Shown piece by piece: positions 2,863-34,418 of a stretch of DNA of 64,000 nt (position 1 is the stretch's first letter; every line of letters begins with the position of its first letter). The stretch lies in assembly GCA_040902085.1 (NCBI GenBank), contig JBBDXY010000002.1:20471-84470 (forward strand), read 5' to 3'. The position numbers and the translations under genes are program-made. A model generated the notes under the pieces. The model saw only the letters and a program-made list of their open reading frames with translations, did no database searches and was not told where the DNA came from. This stretch comes from Gemmatimonadaceae bacterium. GTDB taxonomy: Bacteria > Gemmatimonadota > Gemmatimonadetes > Gemmatimonadales > Gemmatimonadaceae.

Positions 2863-3801
<939 letters not shown>

Positions 3802-3850
3802 GCCGCGCTCACGCCGGCCTATCGGCATGTCTCGTGCAGACTTATAGGGC

Positions 3851-4375
3851 ATGGCACACTCCAAAAAACTCGACGAGCTCTACGATCTCATCCACGGAAT
3901 CGAGACGGCAATGTTCACCACGCGGCGTGGGAACGGACAGCTCGTCTCCCGCCCGATGGCGACGCAGGCGCGCATGGAGGATTGCGATCTCTGGTTCGTC
4001 ACCGATTCCGAGGCGCACAAGCTCGACGATCTCATGCTCGATCCGCACGTGAACTGCGCCTACTACAAGAACAAGACGGGAGAATGGGTTTCGGTGACGG
4101 GCGTGGCGCGCATCTCGAAGAACAGGAACAAGATCAGGCAGCTATACAAGGAAAACTGGAAGGAGTGGTTCGGCGATGAGGGCGGTGAGCGCGATGGCGG
4201 ACCCAACGATCCGCGCATCGCGCTCATTCTGGTGGACGCGGACTCAGCCACCTACATGAAGGTCAACAAAGCGCGGCCGAAGGTCTTGTTCGAAGCGCTG
4301 AGAAGTAAAGTGACGGGACACCGCCCCACCGCCGGAGAGATCCGCGAAGTGACGGGCGCGGAGCTGATGCCCTAG
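3851..4375 (+). CDS. Pyridoxamine 5'-phosphate oxidase-like / general stress protein 26 family protein
   Basis: Resembles YdaG/GSP26-type proteins: ETAMFTTRRGNGQLVSRPMA, DLWFVTDSEAHK, and a C-terminal KNRNKIRQLYKENWKEWF. Confidence 0.65.
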   Translation: MAHSKKLDELYDLIHGIETAMFTTRRGNGQLVSRPMATQARMEDCDLWFVTDSEAHKLDDLMLDPHVNCAYYKNKTGEWVSVTGVARISKNRNKIRQLYKENWKEWFGDEGGERDGGPNDPRIALILVDADSATYMKVNKARPKVLFEALRSKVTGHRPTAGEIREVTGAELMP

Positions 4376-4563
4376 AGGGCACCGATCTCGTCGTAGATCG
4401 TTTTCACCAGCAGCGGCTTCTTCCAGTACTCGACGTGCGCGATCAGGAGTGTCGTCGCCTCCTCGTCGCGCACGTTGTAGACGCGCTGCCTGATTCCTAT
4501 CAGAAAGGCTGCTACGTCACCTGACGTATAGGTCCAGCCGCCCGCTCGCCGTAGCCTCGACAC

Positions 4564-5067
4564 ATGGATAAACGAGCAGCAGGTTGCGGCGCGCTCTCCA
4601 TTGCAGCGACGGTGGCGAGTGTGACGAGCGCACCCTTGTCCGCGCAGACGCTTGCCCCATTGGCATACAGTCAATCCGTCTCGCGAGACTCGAGTGTCGA
4701 CAACGACTCCAGGATCGCGTTCCGACTCGTCACCGCAGCGGTAGTCGGTGCAGCCGGCGCGGCCGCCCTGGGCCGTATCGGGTACGAGCGCGATCGCAAT
4801 TGCCCGTCCTGTGGGGATCCTGATTCGCCCGGTTTCGTCGGAGCCGTGTTAGGTGTGCTCGCCGGTGGGACCATCGGCAGCGCGATCGGTGCCGCTTTGC
4901 CTCGCGGCCGGGGGCTATGTCATGGTGGTGAGCGCTTCGCCCGAACCCTTGGCGGCGCAACGCTTGGCTTGGCTGCGGGAATCGGCCTCTTCATGGTCCC
5001 GACCCTCGAAGGCGGATTCATCGTGACTATCCCGGTCGGCTCGGTGCTGTTCATGAGGAGGTGCTGA
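4564..5067 (+). CDS. Hypothetical Gly/Ala-rich secreted or membrane protein
   Basis: Has a signal-like N-terminus (ALSIAATVASVTSAPLSAQ) and glycine-zipper-like hydrophobic stretches. The start is uncertain. Confidence 0.4.
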   Translation: MDKRAAGCGALSIAATVASVTSAPLSAQTLAPLAYSQSVSRDSSVDNDSRIAFRLVTAAVVGAAGAAALGRIGYERDRNCPSCGDPDSPGFVGAVLGVLAGGTIGSAIGAALPRGRGLCHGGERFARTLGGATLGLAAGIGLFMVPTLEGGFIVTIPVGSVLFMRRC

Positions 5068-5568
5068 GTGCCCAGCGTGTTTGTTCGCAGTTCAGTGGCG
5101 ATTGCGATTCCGCTCCTGTTGTCGGGTTGTAACCTCGGCCGCTGTGACTACGAGTCCCGGTATCTCACGGCAATCGGAAGGGTGACCGAAGGAATTGCGG
5201 AGGTGGCTGCCGCGACTCTAACGGTCGGGGCGGTGCGCGGGGGTCTCAGGTGGAGAGACGTCGACTATCGCATCAGAGTTCCGCTCGAAGGACGCGTCAC
5301 CTCCGTGACACTCATTCTTCCTCAACAGCCTGCGCCACTCCGGCTGGACATGCCCGTCTATGAACAGATAACCCCCTTCGAGTACGCCGGCGGACTGAGC
5401 CAGCGAAAAGACGAGCAGGTCCCTGCCTTGGGGGGAATCTTCGAGATGGTCGCCGCCGGTGGTGCCGTGCTGGAGATCACAACCGATCTGCCTGCCCGGC
5501 CGTTGATCACCCTCCCGCTCACGATCACCGCGGTGCAGGACTGGTATCGATCCAACAACTGTTACTAG
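5068..5568 (+). CDS. Hypothetical lipoprotein
   Basis: GTG start directly after the previous stop. The lipobox-like sequence is AIAIPLLLSGC. No family recognised. Confidence 0.45.
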   Translation: MPSVFVRSSVAIAIPLLLSGCNLGRCDYESRYLTAIGRVTEGIAEVAAATLTVGAVRGGLRWRDVDYRIRVPLEGRVTSVTLILPQQPAPLRLDMPVYEQITPFEYAGGLSQRKDEQVPALGGIFEMVAAGGAVLEITTDLPARPLITLPLTITAVQDWYRSNNCY

Positions 5569-5687
5569 CGGGAGAAATCGCGCATTAGGCAGGGCTTTTC
5601 CGACATCTCTGCCATTTTGTCACGGCGCCCCTCCAAATAGGGGGACGCTTCGCGCATATTGGTCCAAGCCAATCCCGCAGCCCACCG

Positions 5688-6830
5688 ATGATCCCCGCAG
5701 CCACCCCCACCCCCACCCCCGCCTCAGCGCTCAAGCGCACCCCCCTTCACCACGTCCACGCCGCGCTCGGCGCCAAGCTGGTGCCGTTTGCGGGGTTCGA
5801 GATGCCGGTCCAATACCCGACCGGGATCACCGCCGAGCACCGGGCGGTGAGGGAAAAGGCGGGGCTGTTCGACGTCAGCCACATGGGCGAGTTCTTCGTG
5901 CGCGGGCCGCAGGCGGTGGAGTTCGCGAACCACGTGACCACCAACGACGTCGCCGCGCTCAAGCCGGGGCAGGCCCACTACTCCACCATCCTGCGCGAAG
6001 ATGGAACGACCGTCGACGACTGTCTCGTCTACCGCGAAGGCGATGGCGTGATGATGGTCGTGAACGGATCCAACATCGACAAGGACTTCACGCACCTGAG
6101 CGAGTACCTCCACCGCTTCGATGCGACGCTCGTGGATCGCAGCGACCAGATCGCGCTGCTCGCGCTCCAGGGACCCGACGCCGCGCGCATTCTGCAAAAA
6201 CACACCGACACCGATCTTTCGGCGATCAGGTACTACGAGTTCGTGACGGGCGACATCGCCGGAGTGCGGGATGTAGTGATCTCGCGCACGGGATACACGG
6301 GTGAGGATGGGGTCGAGCTCTACTTCGCCAGCGAGGGCGAAGCCGCGGAAACCATCTGGAAAGCGCTCACCGGCGCGGGGGAAGTGACACCAGCCGGGCT
6401 CGGTGCCCGCGATTCACTGCGGCTCGAGATGGGGATGGCGCTCTACGGCAACGACCTCGACGACACCACCACGCCGCTCGAGGCCGGGCTCGGCTGGCTG
6501 GTGAAAATGAAAAAGGGAGATTTCGTTGGCCGCGACGCGCTGGCGCGACAGAAAGAGCAGGGACTCAAGCGCAAGCTGGTGGGATTCACGACGGTGGAGC
6601 GGTCGTTTCCCCGTCACGGGTATCCCGTGTTCGCGAATGGTAAGCCAAGCGGTGAGATCCGCAGCGGAACGATGAGTCCCACGCTCGGCGTTCCCATCGG
6701 CACCGCGTACGTTCCCCCCGGGTCATCCGCCGAAGGATCGCCGCTCGAGATCGAGATCCGTGGCAAGCGGATTCCCGCGACAGTGCAGAAGATGCCGTTC
6801 TATAGAAACGGCAGCAGGCTCCAGGCTTAG
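5688..6830 (+). CDS. gcvT: Glycine cleavage system aminomethyltransferase T
   Basis: Typical GcvT sequence throughout: FAGFEMPVQY, EHRAVREKAGLFDVSHMGEF, GYTGEDGVEL, GLGARDSLRLEMG. Confidence 0.9.
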   Translation: MIPAATPTPTPASALKRTPLHHVHAALGAKLVPFAGFEMPVQYPTGITAEHRAVREKAGLFDVSHMGEFFVRGPQAVEFANHVTTNDVAALKPGQAHYSTILREDGTTVDDCLVYREGDGVMMVVNGSNIDKDFTHLSEYLHRFDATLVDRSDQIALLALQGPDAARILQKHTDTDLSAIRYYEFVTGDIAGVRDVVISRTGYTGEDGVELYFASEGEAAETIWKALTGAGEVTPAGLGARDSLRLEMGMALYGNDLDDTTTPLEAGLGWLVKMKKGDFVGRDALARQKEQGLKRKLVGFTTVERSFPRHGYPVFANGKPSGEIRSGTMSPTLGVPIGTAYVPPGSSAEGSPLEIEIRGKRIPATVQKMPFYRNGSRLQA

Positions 6831-6833
6831 CGC

Positions 6834-7328
6834 ATGCGACTGGCGATTCTCACCATCTCCGACTCCGTCGTGCGCGGTGAGCGGAAAGACGCATCGGGTG
6901 CGATGATCGCCGACTGGGCGCGCGCGCGGAAGCACGAGGTCGTTTCGACCGCTGCGTGTGCCGATGAGACGGTGGAGATAGTGCGCGCGCTGCTGCGCGC
7001 CTGTGACACGGAGAACGCCGAGCTGGTTCTCACCACCGGCGGCACGGGGCTGTCGGAGCGCGACGTCACGCCGGAAGCAACACGCGTGGTGATCGAGCGG
7101 GAGGCGGAAGGAATCGCCGAGCGCATCCGGGTCATGGCACTGCCGACGTTTTCGCGCGCGGCACTGGGACGCGGCGTGGCGGGAGTGCGCGGCAAGAGCC
7201 TGATCGTGAACCTGCCCGGCTCTCCGGGCGGCGTGAAGGACGGACTCGAGGCGCTCGATCCGATCGTCGTCCACGCCTGCGATGTATTGAGCGGCAAAGT
7301 GAAGGAGCACACGGGGGGAGGTGCGTGA
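6834..7328 (+). CDS. mog: Molybdopterin adenylyltransferase / MoaB-MogA family protein
   Basis: MoCF-biosynthesis fold motifs are present: [20 protein letters not shown] and [20 protein letters not shown]. Confidence 0.75.
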
Positions 7329-8881
7329 AAGTTCTCATCACACTCACCGATGTCGAGCCGGCCGTGCGGCTCAACGCGCTGCTCGAAGCGAACGGCACCG
7401 CGACCGAGATGGTGTCTCCGCTCGACGATCTGCGTGGCGAGATCAAGCGCTTCAAGCCCGACCTCATCGTCCTCACCGGCGCCCTCGGCGAGGCGGGCAA
7501 CCTGCAGATCGTGCGCGACCAGCTGTGGACCGGTACGGCGGTGATCGGACTCGCCGATGTCGAAGACCAGGCGCTGCTGGAGCGACTCGGCGCCATGGGT
7601 TTCGTAGATGTATTCACGAAGCCCATCTCCGCCGACGAGCTGTTTCTCGCGGTGCGGCGCGTGCTCGACCGCAAGCGGCTCAGCGAGCTGACGGGACTGA
7701 TCGGACAGTCGGAGGCGATCAGCGAGGTGCTGCTCAAGATCGAGCAGATCGCGCCGGTGTCGAGCACCGTCATCATCGAGGGTGAGAGCGGAACGGGAAA
7801 AGAGCTGGCGGCGCAGGCGATACACCGATTGAGTCCGCGGCGCGGGAAGCCGTTCATCGCGGTGAACGCGGGCGCGCTGCCCGAGAGTCTGATCGAGAGC
7901 GAGCTGTTCGGTCACGAGAAGGGCGCGTTCACCGGCGCTGCCGAGCGGCGCATTGGACGGTTCGAGCTGGCGGACAAGGGCACGTTGTTTCTTGACGAGA
8001 TCGGGGAGATCCCGCCCTCGACGCAGGTGAAGCTGCTGCGCGTGCTGGAGGAGCGGCGTCTTACGCGCGTCGGCGGCACGACATCGATTCCAATCGACGT
8101 GCGCGTAGTGGCGGCGACCAATCGTCCGCTGCGCGAGCACGTGGAAGACGGACATTTCCGTCCCGATCTCTACTATCGGCTCAATGTCCTCAGCATCCAT
8201 CTGCAGCCGCTGCGCGAGCGGCGCGGCGACATCCCGCTCCTGGTGCGTCGCTTCATCGAGGAATTCTCTTCGCTGCACGGCCGGACCTTTCACGGGATCT
8301 CGGCGGAGGCGATGCAGATCCTGATGGATTATCCGTGGCCCGGCAACGTGCGCGAGCTGAGGAATCTGATCGAGAGCATGGTGGTCCTTTCTCCGGGACG
8401 GGAGATCGGCCCGGAGGACATTCCGCGTCAGATCAGGGCGGGCGGATCCGCGCGGTTTCTGCCGGTGCACGTCGGACCGGTGGTGCGCGCCGAGGGGCGC
8501 GAGCTGGAATTCCTGGTGAGGAGCCTGCTCGAGCTGCGGCTGCAGGTGGAGGAGCTGCGGCGGAGGATGGACGAAGAGGTGCGCGAGTCGCGCGCGTGGG
8601 TTGGTGAAGTGCAGTCGCCCGCGGCGCTCGCATCAGGTAGTGATGGAAAGGCGATCGCTACGGCGATCGAGCCGCCGAATCAGGAGCCCGCGCAAACGGT
8701 GGTGACTCTCAAGCCGGAGATGACGATGGCGGAGATCGAGCGGGCGGCGATCGAGGCGGCGCTGAGGAATACGCGCGGCAACCGGAGGAAAGCGGCGGAG
8801 ATTCTGGACATCGGCGAGCGCACGCTGTACCGGAAGCTGCGCGATTATGGGATCGACCCAGAGGATCGGATGAGGGCGTAG
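7325..8881 (+). CDS. Sigma-54-dependent Fis-family transcriptional activator with an atypical receiver-like N-terminal domain
   Basis: AAA+ Walker A GESGTGKE, sigma54-contact motif GAFTGA, and a C-terminal Fis-type HTH ([21 protein letters not shown]). The start overlaps the mog stop. Confidence 0.85.
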
Positions 8882-9028
8882 TCAGCCGTGATTATTGGGC
8901 TATTCTTGCGATTTTGGGAACGGCGGTAATCCTCAAACACACATTGTCAGCTACGTTGCCTCGCCCTCGAAAGTGCGTCCTAAACATGCGGGTATTCTGG
9001 CCCGCTGAGCGCCCAACGGCCGAGGACA

Positions 9029-11356
9029 ATGATCGACACGCACGACATGACGAAGCTGATTCGGCGACTCTCGTGGTTTGCCGCGTGCGCCCTGCTGGTA
9101 ATCGCGGCCACCGTCTCATCTCTTTACGTCCTGCAGGTCCGGACACTGCGTGACCTGGAGCAGGCGCGTGAATACGCGAGAATCGCTCGGAACGCTGCCG
9201 CATTGGCGACGGATCGTGAGACGAGCATCCGCGGCTACCTGCTCACCCGTGACGAAAAATCCCTGGTGCGGGATCTCGTCACCAAGACCCAGCTGCCGAA
9301 ATTGCTCGATTCCCTCGCAACGATGGCGGCAAGCGACAGAGTTCGCGTGGCCCGCCTGCGGCACGCAACCGATGCGCTCTCGAGGTGGGACCGGGAATTC
9401 GCCGAACCGGCGGAAAGCGGTCGTCTGACCGGAGCAGGCGCACCCCTCGCCGGAAAGCCGCTGTTCGACGTCGTGCGGGCACGCTTTGCCGCTGTCGTCA
9501 TCGCCGCCGACGCAAGATTCGCCCGCAGTACTGCGCGGGTGCGGCAGATCGAGATCGCGGGAGCGGCGGCTCTGCTCGGCGAGCTGCTGATATTCTTCGG
9601 GCTTCTCATCTATCTGATTCGCGGCCGGCTGGTCGCTCAGGCCGACGATCTCGCCCGCCAGCAGGAGCTGCTCGAGCAGCAGGCGGTGGAGCTGGAGCTC
9701 CAGGTGAACGAGACGGAATCGGCCAACGAATCCCTGGCGGAATCGCTGGCGGAGATCGAGCGCAAGGACGGGGAGCTGCGGAAGTCACTCACCGAGGCCC
9801 GGCAGCATGAAGAGAAATTGCGCCGCAGCGATGAGCGGTATCGCTACGTCGCCAAGGCCACCAACGACGTCGTCTACGAGTGGGACATCGAGACCAACAG
9901 CTTCGAGTGGAGCGAAGGCATGCGCGACCTGTTCGGGTACGCTGCGGAGGACGTCGGAAGCTCGCCCGAGTGGATCACCGGACTGGTGCATCCCGAAGAT
10001 GAGCCACGCATCAGCGGCACCTTTGCCGCTGCGTTCAGCAGCGGCGCGCACCGCTGGCAGCAGCCATATCGCCTGCGGCGGAAGGACGGAAAATATGCCT
10101 CGGTCGAGGGGCGCGCTTACATCATTCGCGGCGACGATGGCGCGCCACGGAAGGTGATCGGCGCCATAACCGACCGCTCGCCGCAGCAATCACTCGAGGA
10201 GCAGCTGCGGCAGTCGCAGAAGATGGACGCGGTGGGCCGACTGGCCGGTGGAGTGGCGCACGACTTCAACAACATCCTCACCGTGATCAGGATGTCGAGC
10301 GAGTTCCTGCTCGAGGATCTGCCCGACGCCAGCGAGAGCCGCCACGAAGCCAACGAGATACTGAGGGCGTCGGATCGGGCTGCCGCGCTGACGCGGCAGC
10401 TGCTCGCCTTCAGCCGACACCAGGTGCTCAACCCGCGCATCATCGTGCTCAATGACGTGGTCGACGGGATTCAGAGCATGGTCAAGCGGGTCGTCCCGGA
10501 GAACATCGCCGTCAATACCGAGCTCGCGGCGCAGCTCGATCCGATCAAGGCGGACACGGGACAGATCGAGCAGGTGATCGTGAACCTGGTGATCAATGCG
10601 GCGGACGCGATGCCCAACGGGGGCCGGCTCGACATCCGGACGTCGAACGTCGAAGTCGACGCCGCCTTCAGCGCCTCCCACCTCGGCGTCGAGCCGGGGA
10701 GCTATGTGTGTCTCACCGTCAGCGACACCGGCCACGGGATGGACAAGGAGACGGTGACCAGGATCTTCGAGCCGTTCTTCACGACCAAGCCGGTGGGGAA
10801 GGGAACGGGCCTCGGGCTGGCGACGGTGCACGGCATCGTCACCCAGAGCGGCGGGAAGATCTGGGTTTACAGCGAGCCGGGGCACGGCACGACGTTCAAG
10901 ATCTTTCTGCCGCGGAGCGAGGAGGTCGCGCGGCCGATTACCCCGCGCTCGGCGAGAAAGCTGCGCCCGGCGACGGAGACGATCCTGCTGGTGGAGGACG
11001 AGGAGTCGACACGCGAGGCGGTCGAGCGCAGTCTCACCCGCGCCGGCTACAAGGTGCTTTTGGCGAGCAATGGTGTTGAAGCGCTCGAGATCGCTGGAAA
11101 GAACGGGAAGAAGATCGCTCTGGTGCTGACCGACAGCATGATGCCGGAGATGGGCGGGCTCGAGCTGGTGGCGCGGCTGAGAGAGACCCGTCCCGAGATA
11201 CGGGTGCTGATGATGTCGGGGTACACCGAGCAGACGAGCGCCTCGCGGTTCGGGATCTCCGAGCAGCCGTTCATCGAGAAGCCGTTCGCGGCGGCGGACC
11301 TGCTGGCGGCGGTGCAGCGCGTGCTGCACGGCGAGAAGGCCGCGCCGGCGGCGTAG
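9029..11356 (+). CDS. Hybrid sensor histidine kinase (CHASE3-like sensor, PAS, HisKA, HATPase_c, C-terminal receiver)
   Basis: After an N-terminal TM helix comes ETSIRGYLLTRDE (CHASE3-like). Then a coiled coil, a PAS domain (YRYVAKATNDVVYEWD), the H-box GGVAHDFNNILT, the G-box GTGLGLA, and a REC domain (ILLVEDEE...LVLTDSMMPEMGG). Confidence 0.8.
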   Translation: MIDTHDMTKLIRRLSWFAACALLVIAATVSSLYVLQVRTLRDLEQAREYARIARNAAALATDRETSIRGYLLTRDEKSLVRDLVTKTQLPKLLDSLATMAASDRVRVARLRHATDALSRWDREFAEPAESGRLTGAGAPLAGKPLFDVVRARFAAVVIAADARFARSTARVRQIEIAGAAALLGELLIFFGLLIYLIRGRLVAQADDLARQQELLEQQAVELELQVNETESANESLAESLAEIERKDGELRKSLTEARQHEEKLRRSDERYRYVAKATNDVVYEWDIETNSFEWSEGMRDLFGYAAEDVGSSPEWITGLVHPEDEPRISGTFAAAFSSGAHRWQQPYRLRRKDGKYASVEGRAYIIRGDDGAPRKVIGAITDRSPQQSLEEQLRQSQKMDAVGRLAGGVAHDFNNILTVIRMSSEFLLEDLPDASESRHEANEILRASDRAAALTRQLLAFSRHQVLNPRIIVLNDVVDGIQSMVKRVVPENIAVNTELAAQLDPIKADTGQIEQVIVNLVINAADAMPNGGRLDIRTSNVEVDAAFSASHLGVEPGSYVCLTVSDTGHGMDKETVTRIFEPFFTTKPVGKGTGLGLATVHGIVTQSGGKIWVYSEPGHGTTFKIFLPRSEEVARPITPRSARKLRPATETILLVEDEESTREAVERSLTRAGYKVLLASNGVEALEIAGKNGKKIALVLTDSMMPEMGGLELVARLRETRPEIRVLMMSGYTEQTSASRFGISEQPFIEKPFAAADLLAAVQRVLHGEKAAPAA

Positions 11357-18939: not shown

Positions 18940-19009
18940 TAGGGTGTGTCTTGGCTAGCGCACCTGAATGGGGTTCAGGGGGTCGCGGGTTCAAATCCCG
19001 CCGTCCCGA
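18940..19009 (+). tRNA. tRNA-Pro(GGG)-like gene, probably decayed (5' D-stem strand missing)
   Basis: Hand fold gives: anticodon stem CCTGA/TCAGG, loop ATGGGGT (anticodon GGG), variable GGGTC, T arm GCGGG-TTCAAAT-CCCGC, 3' acceptor CGTCCCG plus A. The candidate 5' acceptor TAGGGTG pairs at 6 of 7 positions (2 G-U, 1 A-C). Only 14 nt remain where a 16-20 nt D arm is needed. Confidence 0.45.
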
Positions 19010-19010
19010 T
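18967..19010 (+). repeat. att-type direct repeat, copy 1 (44 bp, tRNA-Pro anticodon loop to 3' end)
   Basis: AATGGGGTTCAGGGGGTCGCGGGTTCAAATCCCGCCGTCCCGAT, identical at three sites. Confidence 0.9.
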
Positions 19011-19023
19011 GGTTAGATAAGTG

Positions 19024-19579: not shown

Positions 19580-19940
19580 CCACAACGAGACCGACCGACA
19601 GCGACTAGGCAGGCTTGCTGCGACCCCTCGCCGGGAGTTAACATCGTGCGCCGAACACCAGCTCCCTCCCCGACGGAGATTCGCATGAGAACCTTTCTCA
19701 ACGCAAAGAGACTGGAGTTGTATCAGACCCCGCTTATTCTGCACATCGCTCGGCAGAATGGCGGCCAGATTGGGCGAGCAGTCCTTCGAGGCGGTTCGCT
19801 AACGTGGTATACCGGCAACGCGCAAAAAGGCCATCGCGTAAAGTGGGCCAAGCTTGGAGCCTTGATTCAGAGTTCGGTGCCGAAGCGGAAAAAGCGGAAG
19901 GTCCGGGGCAAGTAGGTCCGTCCGTTCGGATCACGGCTTC

Positions 19941-20213
19941 CTAGCTGATCGTCCCTCGAACAGGTAGTCTCACCACTACGGACTGGACGAAAGCCGACGA
20001 GGGCGCAATTCCGTGCTTGTGGTTGTAGCGGTCAATGGCTCGGTCGATTGCTTCCTCTGCCGTCTTCCCGTTTGAAACGGGATAGAACTTCGGCGGTTCG
20101 CCCGGCCCGGACGTGCGGCACCAGTGAACCATGTAGCCGTAGTCGCCGCCGTCAGTGTGCAGGGTTAACCCGTGGTCGGCCAGGAATCTCCAGCGCTGGG
20201 CGTCGGTCGGCAT
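19941..20213 (-). CDS. Small hypothetical protein (90 aa), abutting the upstream TIR-like gene
   Basis: Its ATG (20213) directly follows the stop codon (20214-20216) of the TIR-like ORF. Confidence 0.45.
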   Translation of the reverse strand: MPTDAQRWRFLADHGLTLHTDGGDYGYMVHWCRTSGPGEPPKFYPVSNGKTAEEAIDRAIDRYNHKHGIAPSSAFVQSVVVRLPVRGTIS

Positions 20214-21242
20214 CTATCCTATGTCGAAGTAGCTCACCGAAGGCGGGATGCCCGTGACTCTTCCACCCTTTTTGGGCTTCTTGTTCAGGCGGTCGAGCAA
20301 TCGTTCAAAGAGGTAGTCCAGCAAAGCCTCTGAGCTGAGAGGCTCGTCCTTCTTGGGAACCTGCCACACAACGCGATCTACGTAGTCGATTGTCGGGGTC
20401 ACCCCAAAGTCGCCCAGTTTGGTCGGCCCGCCACCCCAGCCCGGTGAGTACATGAATCGCCCGCCCCACTCGACTACCAACAAACCGGCGCCGTGTAAGC
20501 TGTTCGAGTACTCCGGCTGCCAGTAAAGGACGAAGCTCCCAACAGGGCTTGATGCCGCAATGCTGCGGTAATTGGAGTCATTCTTCAGGAACTCCAGCCC
20601 TAAGCCAGGGGAAACCGCAGCGAGTTCCGGGACACGCTTGGCCAGCAGCTCACCGAGGCGCGTTATCTCGTCCCCTGCCGCTTTGAAGCCCGCGACCGAG
20701 CGTCCGAAGAGCTGTTTCCGTTCTTCGAAGTCACGCTCACGCTCTGCACGGGCGGCTCGCTCGAGCACCGAGTCCTGTTTCGGGCGGCCGCCTAGTTCCG
20801 TGACTCGGTTGTCAATCGTTGCGAGCAGGCCTTCGATGCCGAACTTGGCATAGCCGTACCAAATCTTGGTCGAAGGAATCCACTTGGGCGGCTTCGCGTC
20901 ATCGAGGCAAACAACGATCAGGAAGTCCCATCCGTGTTCAAGTGCCCGCTCCTTGATCGCCGATTCCTCTATGTGCGTATAGCCAGTTTTGCCCCACCCG
21001 TCGCTGTGCAGAACGACACACACGCGGCTCTCATATCGAAAGATGTTGGTGAACGCCTCGACGCCATCAGTGTTGCGCCCGATCACCTCTCGCTGTTCTC
21101 GCGAGTAGACGAACGTCGAGAGGCGATCCGTGAGGCCATCGCTGACGCGCAACGCCGCGGCCTCGTGAGCACTTAGAAAAGAGAACGCTACGTCGTAGCG
21201 GAATTCGTCGGTCATCATCAGAGACAATTTAGCGGCTGACAA
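20214..21242 (-). CDS. TIR-like domain protein with unknown C-terminal domain
   Basis: The N-terminus YDVAFSFLSAHEAAA...RVCVVLHSDGWGKTGYTHIEESAI follows the TIR_2 pattern: (Y)DVFxSF strand, then hydrophobic strand-W-x-E helix. The roughly 200-aa C-terminal region is unassigned. Confidence 0.55.
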   Translation of the reverse strand: MSAAKLSLMMTDEFRYDVAFSFLSAHEAAALRVSDGLTDRLSTFVYSREQREVIGRNTDGVEAFTNIFRYESRVCVVLHSDGWGKTGYTHIEESAIKERALEHGWDFLIVVCLDDAKPPKWIPSTKIWYGYAKFGIEGLLATIDNRVTELGGRPKQDSVLERAARAERERDFEERKQLFGRSVAGFKAAGDEITRLGELLAKRVPELAAVSPGLGLEFLKNDSNYRSIAASSPVGSFVLYWQPEYSNSLHGAGLLVVEWGGRFMYSPGWGGGPTKLGDFGVTPTIDYVDRVVWQVPKKDEPLSSEALLDYLFERLLDRLNKKPKKGGRVTGIPPSVSYFDIG

Positions 21243-21329
21243 CTGGCGAGAGCGGGGCGGTTCGAGACTCCTACTGATGAAGCGCGCTACTTAGATTGTT
21301 TCTTTGGGCAGCCACGCGCAGGAGGCACA

Positions 21330-21605
21330 ATGAGTCTGCATACTAAGGACGGGCGACCTCTCCAAGTCTCGGGCGACACGGTGTATAGCGGCTCCGGCCA
21401 AGTTGTGGGCCGTATCAGGGACGACAAGGTTTACGGCACCGACGGGCGCTACATTGGAACGATCACGAGCGGTCGGTTGGTGCACCGCTCGACCGACAGC
21501 GCCGGAATAGGCTCTCCGTTCGCGTCGGCCAACCGCGGCGGCTCCGGCCAAGCACGCGTTGGTGGCTCAGGTCTCTGGGGCGACGAACCAAATATTCCGG
21601 ACTGA
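21330..21605 (+). CDS. 4-fold beta-flower-like small protein
   Basis: Repeated short strands of the type G(D/Q)xVYSGSGQVVGRI / DKVYGTDGRYIGTI / SGRLVH. Confidence 0.4.
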   Translation: MSLHTKDGRPLQVSGDTVYSGSGQVVGRIRDDKVYGTDGRYIGTITSGRLVHRSTDSAGIGSPFASANRGGSGQARVGGSGLWGDEPNIPD

Positions 21606-21710: not shown

Positions 21711-22433
21711 GTGGATCACGACGCCAATCCTCTAGCGAGTCACCAAATGGCCTTTCCGTACACGGTTACAATCGCCGGGCTCGTCGCAACGATTCGACAG
21801 CTTCGAAGCGCGTTCCCGAGTCAGGTTACTCCTGACACCCTGAGAAGGTGGGGTATCGCTCCCAACAACGAGACATACGTCCTTCACATTCTCAGGTTTC
21901 TAGGAATCATTGACGAAGAGGGGAAGAAGGTCGCAGAGAACGCGAAGATTTTTTCCGAAGTTGATGACGAGGCATTTGCGAAGCGGTTCTCTGCGCTAGT
22001 TCAAACGGCATATGAGGGACTATTTGAGCATTACGGCGACAAGACTTGGACGCTAGACCGTCAGAAGCTGATCGGGTTTTTTCGTGGGGCTGATGACACC
22101 AGCGCGCGTGTCGGATATCAGCAAGCGGCAACGTTTGAGGTTCTAGCCAGCCTCGCTGGGCATGGAGCCCCTCCCGCCGAAGCGAAAGCGACTCCAACTA
22201 GAGCCAGAAAGTCCGTTCCCAGTCCTCCTTCCAGTCGCAAGGAAAGGACTCCCGCTCCTGCTCGCGGCGAGGCGCACACACCTGCGCCTCCGAAGGTGCC
22301 CGAAAACACTCCTCCGGCTGGCAGTCCCGCGTTGACGGTGCGAGTCGAGATAAACCTTCCGGTCACCGATGATCAGGAGGTCTACGACAAAATCTTTCGC
22401 AGCATCAGGACAAACCTTTTGCTGAATGAGTGA
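21711..22433 (+). CDS. DUF5343-like protein
   Basis: QVTPDTLRRWGIAPNNETYVLHILRFLGIIDEEGKK resembles DUF5343. Its 3' end overlaps the next gene by 8 nt. Confidence 0.5.
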   Translation: MDHDANPLASHQMAFPYTVTIAGLVATIRQLRSAFPSQVTPDTLRRWGIAPNNETYVLHILRFLGIIDEEGKKVAENAKIFSEVDDEAFAKRFSALVQTAYEGLFEHYGDKTWTLDRQKLIGFFRGADDTSARVGYQQAATFEVLASLAGHGAPPAEAKATPTRARKSVPSPPSSRKERTPAPARGEAHTPAPPKVPENTPPAGSPALTVRVEINLPVTDDQEVYDKIFRSIRTNLLLNE

Positions 22434-22908
22434 CGTCTGGCGCGCCTTTGAATGGATTGTTCGAAACGCAACTCGGTTTACCGATGCACCTCCGATCGTG
22501 GAAGCGCAGCATCCATTCGACGTCCGAAATATCCATCCTGCTCTACCGGGAATCGTGAAGAGCCTTTTCGACAGTACCCATTACGCGCAGGCCACTTTCG
22601 AAGCCTTCAAGTTTCTCGACAACGAGATAAAGCGGCACTCCGGCTTGGACAAAACCGGCAAACAACTGATGATGGCGGCGCTTTCAGAGGTGTCCCCGCT
22701 AGTGCAGCTCGCCCCGCTCACAACTGATTCGGGGCGAAACGAGCAGGAGGGGTACAAGTTCATTTTCGCCGGAAGCATGATGGCGATACGCAACCCCCGG
22801 GGGCACGAGCACAGTTTGGTAGACGACATCGATACGTGCCTCGATCACCTCACCCTCGTCTCACAATTACTTCGACGACTTGCGCAGGCGGGGTACTCAA
22901 CTCTATAG
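22426..22908 (+). CDS. TIGR02391-family (HEPN-type) protein
   Basis: YAQATFEAFKFLDNEIK...GKQLMMAALS...NEQEGYKFIFAGSMMAIRNPRGHEH matches the TIGR02391 layout and contains an Rx4H motif. Confidence 0.65.
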   Translation: MSDVWRAFEWIVRNATRFTDAPPIVEAQHPFDVRNIHPALPGIVKSLFDSTHYAQATFEAFKFLDNEIKRHSGLDKTGKQLMMAALSEVSPLVQLAPLTTDSGRNEQEGYKFIFAGSMMAIRNPRGHEHSLVDDIDTCLDHLTLVSQLLRRLAQAGYSTL

Positions 22909-23509: not shown

Positions 23510-23553
23510 AATGGGGTTCAGGGGGTCGCGGGTTCAAATCCCGCCGTCCCGAT
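23510..23553 (+). repeat. att-type direct repeat, copy 2
   Basis: Identical 44-mer; no tRNA body lies upstream of it. Confidence 0.9.
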
Positions 23554-23721
23554 TTTGTAAGTGATTGAATTAGCACGAGATGAGAGCGGGAGCCCTGAGT
23601 ACTCGGAGTTTCCGCTTTTGCTGAATGGTGCGATAATGGTGCGGTCGAGTTTTTTCGATTGGCATCCGTTTGAACCATCAAATCAACTCACGCGACTTTC
23701 GGTCGCGGAGTTCGGCAAGAG

Positions 23722-34335: not shown

Positions 34336-34379
34336 AATGGGGTTCAGGGGGTCGCGGGTTCAAATCCCGCCGTCCCGAT
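34336..34379 (+). repeat. att-type direct repeat, copy 3
   Basis: Identical 44-mer; no tRNA body lies upstream of it. Confidence 0.9.
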
Positions 34380-34418
34380 TGATGGTAACTGCATGCAACC
34401 AGTTGACTTCTCAGTCCG

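Follow-up and report, generated by a model that had tools for sequence, protein, structure and literature searches.

The stretch of 64,000 nucleotides analysed here (the window; Gemmatimonadaceae bacterium, contig JBBDXY010000002.1, positions 20,471 to 84,470) contains two adjacent genes on its reverse strand, a larger one for a protein with a TIR fold and a smaller one for a 90-aa protein, both located in a short islet at a tRNA-Pro gene (Table 1). Inspection of the junction gave GGA TAG ATG CCG, in which the TAG stop codon of the larger gene (20214-20216) is followed with zero spacer by the ATG of the smaller one at 20213. This agreed with the initial annotation, which had described two open reading frames (ORFs) on the same strand with stop abutting start; the motifs quoted there, YDVAFSFLS and RVCVVLHSDGWGKTGYTHIEESAI, were also found in the large protein. 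The longest large ORF (20214-21242) starts with TTG and encodes 342 aa, and residue numbers of the TIR protein follow this frame throughout. Because all homologues start with MTDEF, the ATG at 21215 or 21212 is probably the true start, giving ~332 aa. The annotated ORF 20214-21242 is a real gene, but its TTG start at 21242 is less likely than either ATG. A sigma-70-like match (21242-21214), which runs over the likely start codon, was probably due to chance. In a collection clustered at 90% identity, 32 relatives of the large protein were found (31-89% identity). The 90-aa protein had 176 relatives (~62-91% identity) with a conserved head, MPTDAERWRFL, and tail, VRGWVS. Judged from sequence comparison, both ORFs are real genes and not chance frames.

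The N-terminal part of the large protein is confidently predicted to adopt the flavodoxin-like five-strand TIR fold. The AlphaFold2 model of the protein (27 sequences) had a predicted local distance difference test score (pLDDT) of 85 and a predicted template modelling score of 0.76. The leading Foldseek matches in the PDB were all TIR domains with a probability of 1.0, namely SPARTA TIR-APAZ, MyD88, TLR1, MAL, SARM1 and AbTir. The VIA structure search, which is independent of Foldseek, aligned residues 10-153 with MAL at a Z score of 14.4 (133 aligned residues, root-mean-square deviation (rmsd) of 2.9), and further TIR matches were MyD88 (Z 14.3), SARM1 (12.8), SpbK (10.6, 9phb) and ThsB (9.8). 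Glu92 was invariant across the 27 sequences and was kept in at least 90% of 60 relatives. In the model it lies within helix 87-103, after strand 72-79, a place that corresponds to where helix C begins behind strand C. The motif around it is W/Y-T-x-x-E, and W-T-x-x-E in distant members; W-x-x-x-E is the canonical context of the TIR catalytic Glu. The register of Glu92 on the Pfam TIR_2 profile agrees within a few positions with that of a canonical TIR_2 protein of the same genome. Glu92 is probably the catalytic Glu of the enzymes of this type that cleave nicotinamide adenine dinucleotide (NAD). The earlier assignment of the N-terminus to the TIR pattern is thus borne out by the AlphaFold2 model, Foldseek, VIA and the conserved candidate catalytic Glu.

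In sequence searches, TIR_2 was matched below its threshold by 29 of the 60 relatives, the matches beginning at the first strand, and the DVAFSF motif of this strand is also TIR-like. A tblastn search of plasmids with the Rhizobium relative P0027, which belongs to the same family, gave three partial matches at ~1e-6 that are annotated as TIR-domain proteins, and the same search with the window TIR protein gave no match. PHROGs contained no match for the TIR protein or the 90-aa protein. By features, the nearest clusters in the ESM Atlas were ones with the Pfam 38.1 family PF27176 'TIRY4lF' (Y4lF TIR domain-containing proteins), at scores of 0.82-0.85, where a value below 0.9 is a lead only. 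These clusters were 149-177 aa long, half the length of the TIR protein, and a literature search on 'Y4lF' found nothing relevant. If the lead holds, the TIR part would already be catalogued.

Residues 155-342, modelled alone, gave a pLDDT of 92 and formed a long helical hairpin, then an antiparallel sheet of six strands that is closed off by a helix. This region had been annotated as matching nothing. That was confirmed for sequence families, since neither Pfam nor PDB sequence profiles gave a match. As to the fold, the best eight VIA rows were all frataxin/CyaY/Nqo15 (Z 8.0-9.2 over 99-109 aligned residues, with an rmsd of 3.0-3.5), and the next row was at 6.8. PDB sequence searches with the profiles A1 and A3 returned dysferlin and syntaxin, which were rejected as chance matches only. 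The C-terminal module may share the alpha, beta-sheet, alpha sandwich with frataxin, CyaY and Nqo15. In contrast, identity to them was only 6-18% without sequence similarity, the module has an extra long helix that forms the hairpin, and nothing points to iron binding. The module may be frataxin-like in fold only, the resemblance being topological. According to a paper on the Menshen system, defence systems use frataxin-like folds as sensor domains (PMC12065111).

The C-terminal module also occurs by itself, as ORFs of 151-212 aa in G106, G273, G244 and G047, which cover profile positions ~148-313; G047 is of the same genus as the window genome. Such stand-alone modules were located at 5944-6582 of L064, 6023-6526 of L066 and 5962-6417 of L067. 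When the C-terminal region by itself was the query of a word-limited search, the matches were close full-length relatives only, with no sign of a domain swap to other effectors.

The TIR protein with its tail belongs to a large family. At E ≤ 1e-3 it comprised 1204 representative clusters (50% identity), and 336 at 1e-30, with lengths almost uniformly of 300-335 aa; the best 150 representatives were 116-340 aa, and most of them covered the whole query. Within the phylum the family was present in 18 of 401 genomes (~1 in 20), and among the seven genomes searched in the genus only the window genome had a full-length homologue. A scan of genome contigs with alignment A2 found no relative. An all-against-all ORF comparison of the flanks of 27 loci revealed no neighbour in common beyond close kin, and close homologues sit in differing contexts. 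The neighbours of the family were a mixture of housekeeping and mobile or defence genes (Rep_1, rve_3, DUF5615/PIN-like, SIR2, MADS, AriA and PycC-like). At L026, where the homologue is 87% identical, DNA likeness to the window sets in 40 nt upstream of the start codon and was not seen before that point, and therefore the TIR gene appears to move as a single cassette; L026 is the only locus at 87% identity that was examined, and it ends inside the TIR gene. At several of the loci L029-L036 and L052-L054, the GC content at third codon positions (GC3) of the TIR-family genes was 0.63-0.70 versus 0.8-0.9 for flanking genes, which fits a recent horizontal arrival.

Two kinds of neighbourhood were recorded besides. 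Family members near rpsU (S21) and a cold-shock gene were found at 4747-6439 of L060, 1577-3151 of L061, 6079-8655 of L062 and 4091-6667 of L063; at two of these loci, L060 and L061, the frame for S21, as called from the longest ORF, abuts the TIR-like frame. In genome G373 (L054, G373:C12), a co-directional cluster of low GC3 at 3365-10070 includes a family member at 5912-6904. The gene order is a NucC/PD-DExK-like gene, a 250-aa gene, a 284-aa gene resembling Pycsar TIR effectors, a 144-aa gene, the TIR-family member and, 7 nt after it, a 512-aa PycC-like cyclase (PADLOC, 3.3e-30). L054 may be a composite cyclic-nucleotide defence locus.

The TIR gene and the 90-aa gene sit in a 4.5-kb islet that is flanked by attachment-site (att) repeats and has no integrase. 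This assignment was made because repeats of the tRNA-Pro 3' end recur and the GC content falls from ~0.63-0.66 before the tRNA to 0.55-0.59 after it. The gene of the excisionase-type helix-turn-helix (HTH) protein is backbone of the mobile element, and its homologues adjoin copies of the 90-aa gene at L004 (34% identity) and at L041 and L078 (51% identity). The overlapping DUF5343 and Hypoth_Ymh genes matched PDC-M34A (3.9e-20) and Aga_HEPN / PD-Lambda-3_B (~1e-15) in PADLOC, and this pair is a separate candidate defence module within the same islet. The beta-flower-like gene is divergent from the TIR gene and was regarded as neighbouring cargo. Scans of the nine ORFs around the TIR gene with Pfam, PADLOC and NCBIfam detected no SIR2, SLOG, macro or STING gene in the islet, just as the initial annotation had noted. 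In run X1, from the likely source sample, a contig of 4555 nt covered the stretch 19600-21400 and equalled the att-to-att segment in length; since an assembly would break at the 45-nt repeats, all three of them, such a contig is to be expected and does not demonstrate excision as a circle.

Table 1. Features of the TIR locus, domains of the TIR protein (residues in the TTG numbering) and the related module at L004.
Feature	Position	Strand	Source or remark
tRNA-Pro(GGG)	18940-19009	+	ARAGORN
tRNA-Pro 3' 45-nt repeat, copy 1	18967-19011	+	first of three att-like direct repeats (family D1)
Excisionase-type HTH gene, 131 aa	19184-19579	+	weak Pfam HTH_17, E 0.017
90-aa gene	19941-20213	-	ATG start; linked to mobile elements, multi-copy
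TIR-fold gene	20214-21215	-	~332 aa from ATG; longest ORF from TTG reaches 21242
Beta-flower-like small gene	21330-21605	+	Pfam Bflower, 25.9 bits, cut-off 25
Overlapping DUF5343 and Hypoth_Ymh (HEPN) pair	21711-22908	+	Pfam; PADLOC
tRNA-Pro 3' 45-nt repeat, copy 2	23510-23554	+	right-hand end of islet
tRNA-Pro 3' 45-nt repeat, copy 3	34336-34380		same orientation
TIR domain	residues 12-153
Helical hairpin	residues 159-210
Frataxin-like sandwich	residues 183-320
Disordered tail	residues 324-342
Module at L004 (G000:C3:203000-212740)	6195-8426		with tRNA-Pro(CGG)
Tyrosine integrase, L004	6362-7660	-
Excisionase-like HTH gene, L004	7593-8048	-
90-aa gene copy, L004	8178-8426	+	contig ends soon after

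The 90-aa gene had a distribution of its own. It was found in 6 of the 401 genomes of the phylum, was restricted to the genus among the genomes searched, and was multi-copy, with six matches in G036 and two in G228; in G228 a copy was also flanked by an HTH homologue. A second copy (78% identity) lies on another contig of the window genome, at L004 beside tRNA-Pro(CGG), a tyrosine integrase gene and an HTH gene homologous to that of the islet, with no TIR gene nearby. In the permafrost metagenome run X2, four contigs lost likeness to the window exactly at 20213, the start codon of the 90-aa gene. The nearest ESM Atlas clusters outside those of the 90-aa protein itself were viral. Because of its occurrence without a TIR gene, the second copy with integrase and HTH genes, the break in likeness and the viral clusters, we assign the 90-aa gene to the backbone of the integrative elements found in this genus.

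By analogy, the way in which the window TIR protein works would come closest to SpbK or to the TIR systems that consist of a single protein. SpbK (YddK) of the Bacillus subtilis element ICEBs1 is a single-gene TIR NADase that acts by abortive infection, and binding of its non-TIR domain to a phage portal protein activates the TIR NADase (PMC11984713). Both proteins combine a TIR domain and a small non-TIR domain in one polypeptide, are cargo of integrative elements, have no partner gene and conserve the catalytic Glu, and their TIR domains superpose (9phb). In contrast, SpbK has its sensor at the N-terminus (aa 1-94) and its TIR domain at the C-terminus, which is the reverse of the order in the window protein, and in the tests made neither a relation between the non-TIR domains nor any likeness in sequence was seen. 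Single-protein TIR defence has also been demonstrated in E. coli for TIR-II, TIR-V, TIR-VI as well as TIR-IX, which protect against phages without a second gene and need the TIR active-site residue (PMC11350192). By their description, these systems differ in having TPR domains or a short TIR only, and none has a hairpin with a frataxin-like domain.

A TIR fold that carries a catalytic Glu, and a setting in bacterial defence, are also seen in ThsB of the Thoeris system (6LHY, 8WCF). Nevertheless, ThsB pairs with an adjacent ThsA, which was absent among the ORFs scanned around the TIR gene, and the PADLOC models of ThsB did not match the window protein. No CD-NTase or PycC cyclase of CBASS or Pycsar was detected in the islet by Pfam or PADLOC, and there was no SAVED, STING or cyclic nucleotide monophosphate-binding fold among the top VIA rows of the C-terminal module. 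The window TIR protein thus does not fit Thoeris or the CBASS/Pycsar effectors, and it does not fit a two-gene pairing with the 90-aa protein either.

Two other TIR loci were observed in the window genome. One 555-aa frame at G000:C3:68746-70155 (L069/L071) has TIR_2 at one end (2.9e-18) and SIR2_2 at the other (2.8e-7), and is apparently a TIR-SIR2 fusion. A 294-aa TIR_2 protein (28.5 bits) with a PWIHFE motif is encoded at 1495-2379 of L072 (G000:C3:34469-35353), directly past the 3' end of a gyrB-like gene; its C-terminus is unlike that of the TIR-tail family.

Taken together by analogy with these systems, we consider the TIR gene to be a self-contained, single-polypeptide TIR NADase defence candidate that is carried as cargo on the att-flanked tRNA-Pro islet, with a probability of roughly 0.55. 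The C-terminal module would sense an infection cue, such as a phage protein or nucleic acid, or would hold the enzyme off. On a trigger, oligomerisation of the TIR domains would lead to hydrolysis of NAD+, and the loss of NAD+ would abort the infection, as with the single-gene SpbK borne by an integrative and conjugative element. The 90-aa gene would happen to be transcribed behind the TIR gene and would not be required for it. This explanation is supported by the TIR fold, the conserved Glu, the C-terminal module, the uniform length of the family, the lack of a conserved neighbour, the patchy spread and the location on an att-flanked islet of low GC that also holds a PDC-M34A-like pair.

Several observations weigh on the other side. 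The TIR protein of the window matched no Pfam family at E ≤ 0.1 and nothing in PADLOC or NCBIfam, and relatives scored singly against TIR_2 reached 15-23 bits (cut-off 28) over profile positions 1-111. Glu92 was equated with the catalytic Glu by topology and motif, not by residue-level superposition. The frataxin-like match of the C-terminal module had a Z score of only 8-9.2, and Foldseek gave nothing significant for it (E > 0.05, best frataxin probability 0.57). The NADase and anti-phage actions of the family are drawn from analogy, and many TIR proteins make signalling nucleotides instead of depleting NAD+. Furthermore, distant members in G271, G171, G131 and G337, from two related genera, have rpsU and a cold-shock gene as neighbours, and the stand-alone C-terminal modules are found among housekeeping genes, in the truA/purB interval or beside bcp. 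Since such contexts occur, part of the family may have a non-immune role.

The layout of the locus had suggested a two-gene TIR system, with the 90-aa protein as a dedicated effector, antitoxin or regulator that is translationally coupled to the TIR protein. It is true that stop and start abut on the same strand without a spacer, and that the 90-aa gene is real and conserved. The pairing claimed in the initial annotation was nevertheless not borne out by a survey of co-occurrence. This covered 14 metagenome loci with TIR homologues of 61-87% identity, of which seven (61-63% identity) were informative with at least 360 bp downstream, and 13 genome loci with more distant homologues, inspected over ±6 kb; P0001-P0009 (74-89% identity), including the 86-89% relatives P0001-P0005, are excluded from it. 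The 90-aa gene was found at none of the seven informative metagenome loci and at none of the 13 genome loci within 6 kb (0/20 in all), and hence is not conserved beside TIR homologues. At neither L031 nor L034 does anything abut the stop codon of the TIR homologue. Conversely, G036 and G228 carry the 90-aa gene, and a TIR homologue was not found in either. Among the 401 genomes searched, only the window genome and G047 were in both sets, and in G047 the matches were no more than a C-terminal module standing alone and pieces of the 90-aa gene. The second copy in the window genome without an adjoining TIR gene and the break in likeness at 20213 in run X2 also speak against a pair, as does the summed contig depth in that run, 13-52 for the 90-aa gene versus 2-10 for the TIR gene, although this is a poor measure of abundance. 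The two lists of relatives had no contig of the same size in common except 2806 (P0025 and P0055, from different sources). A two-gene system is thus largely refuted by co-occurrence and very improbable, and at the zero-spacer junction cargo and element backbone were joined by chance. An addiction module of the toxin-antitoxin type, in which a TIR toxin checked by the 90-aa protein or by its own C-terminal domain would stabilise the islet, could account for the order of toxin and small gene and for the persistence of an islet that, without an integrase, would otherwise be prone to loss. But co-occurrence fails here as well, each of the two genes being often found alone, and we regard such a module as extremely unlikely.

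Two further explanations leave the 90-aa gene aside. The TIR protein might act like ThsB and make a nucleotide signal, of the cyclic ADP-ribose isomer or His-ADP-ribose type, for an effector elsewhere in the genome. The fold matches to ThsB (6lhy, Z 9.8; 8wcf, Z 8.7), the match of one of the 60 relatives to PADLOC ThsB1 (6.4e-4) and the G373 member lying just upstream of a PycC-like cyclase among signalling-type defence genes are consistent with this, as are the SIR2_2 genes elsewhere in the window genome (C2:261202 and C3:68746). These SIR2 genes are, however, 220 kb off or on another contig, whereas known Thoeris genes adjoin each other, and no ThsA-type gene (SIR2/SLOG or macro) was present in the islet or beside the ~20 homologues surveyed; a ThsB-like role seems unlikely. 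Alternatively, the family might function in cellular regulation or stress, for example in a control through NAD or nucleotides that is coupled to translation or cold shock, and the copy in the window would be one member that was moved horizontally. The rpsU/cold-shock contexts, the stand-alone modules at truA/purB or bcp and the many housekeeping families among the neighbours would fit such a function. The linkage to rpsU and the cold-shock gene may, however, be a single event, because only closely related genera show it. Moreover, the window copy is in an att-flanked islet of low GC with a candidate defence pair, the distribution is patchy with no full-length copy in the six other genomes of the genus, and close homologues sit in differing contexts. 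We therefore give a non-immune function of the family a small chance.

The preferred explanation, a self-contained TIR NADase, could be taken further. The hairpin and frataxin-like module might be a new, reusable domain for infection sensing or auto-inhibition. It would switch on a TIR NADase in the same polypeptide chain, besides occurring unattached as a protein of the cell; the ~1200 clusters of the family would then make up a single-gene system against phages that has not been described and whose trigger follows a new logic, perhaps connected in some lineages with the translation or cold-shock machinery. This extension is speculative, and we consider it doubtful. A literature search found no paper on the architecture of a TIR domain with a hairpin and frataxin-like module. 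The negative result on pairing matters in itself, as a zero-spacer junction on a mobile islet mimicked an operon partnership. Single-protein TIR enzymes are now emerging as a class of immune genes in bacteria whose sensing of infection is little understood, and the TIR-tail family, being large, compact (~320 aa) and confidently modelled, would offer a tractable case for how a TIR NADase is switched on.

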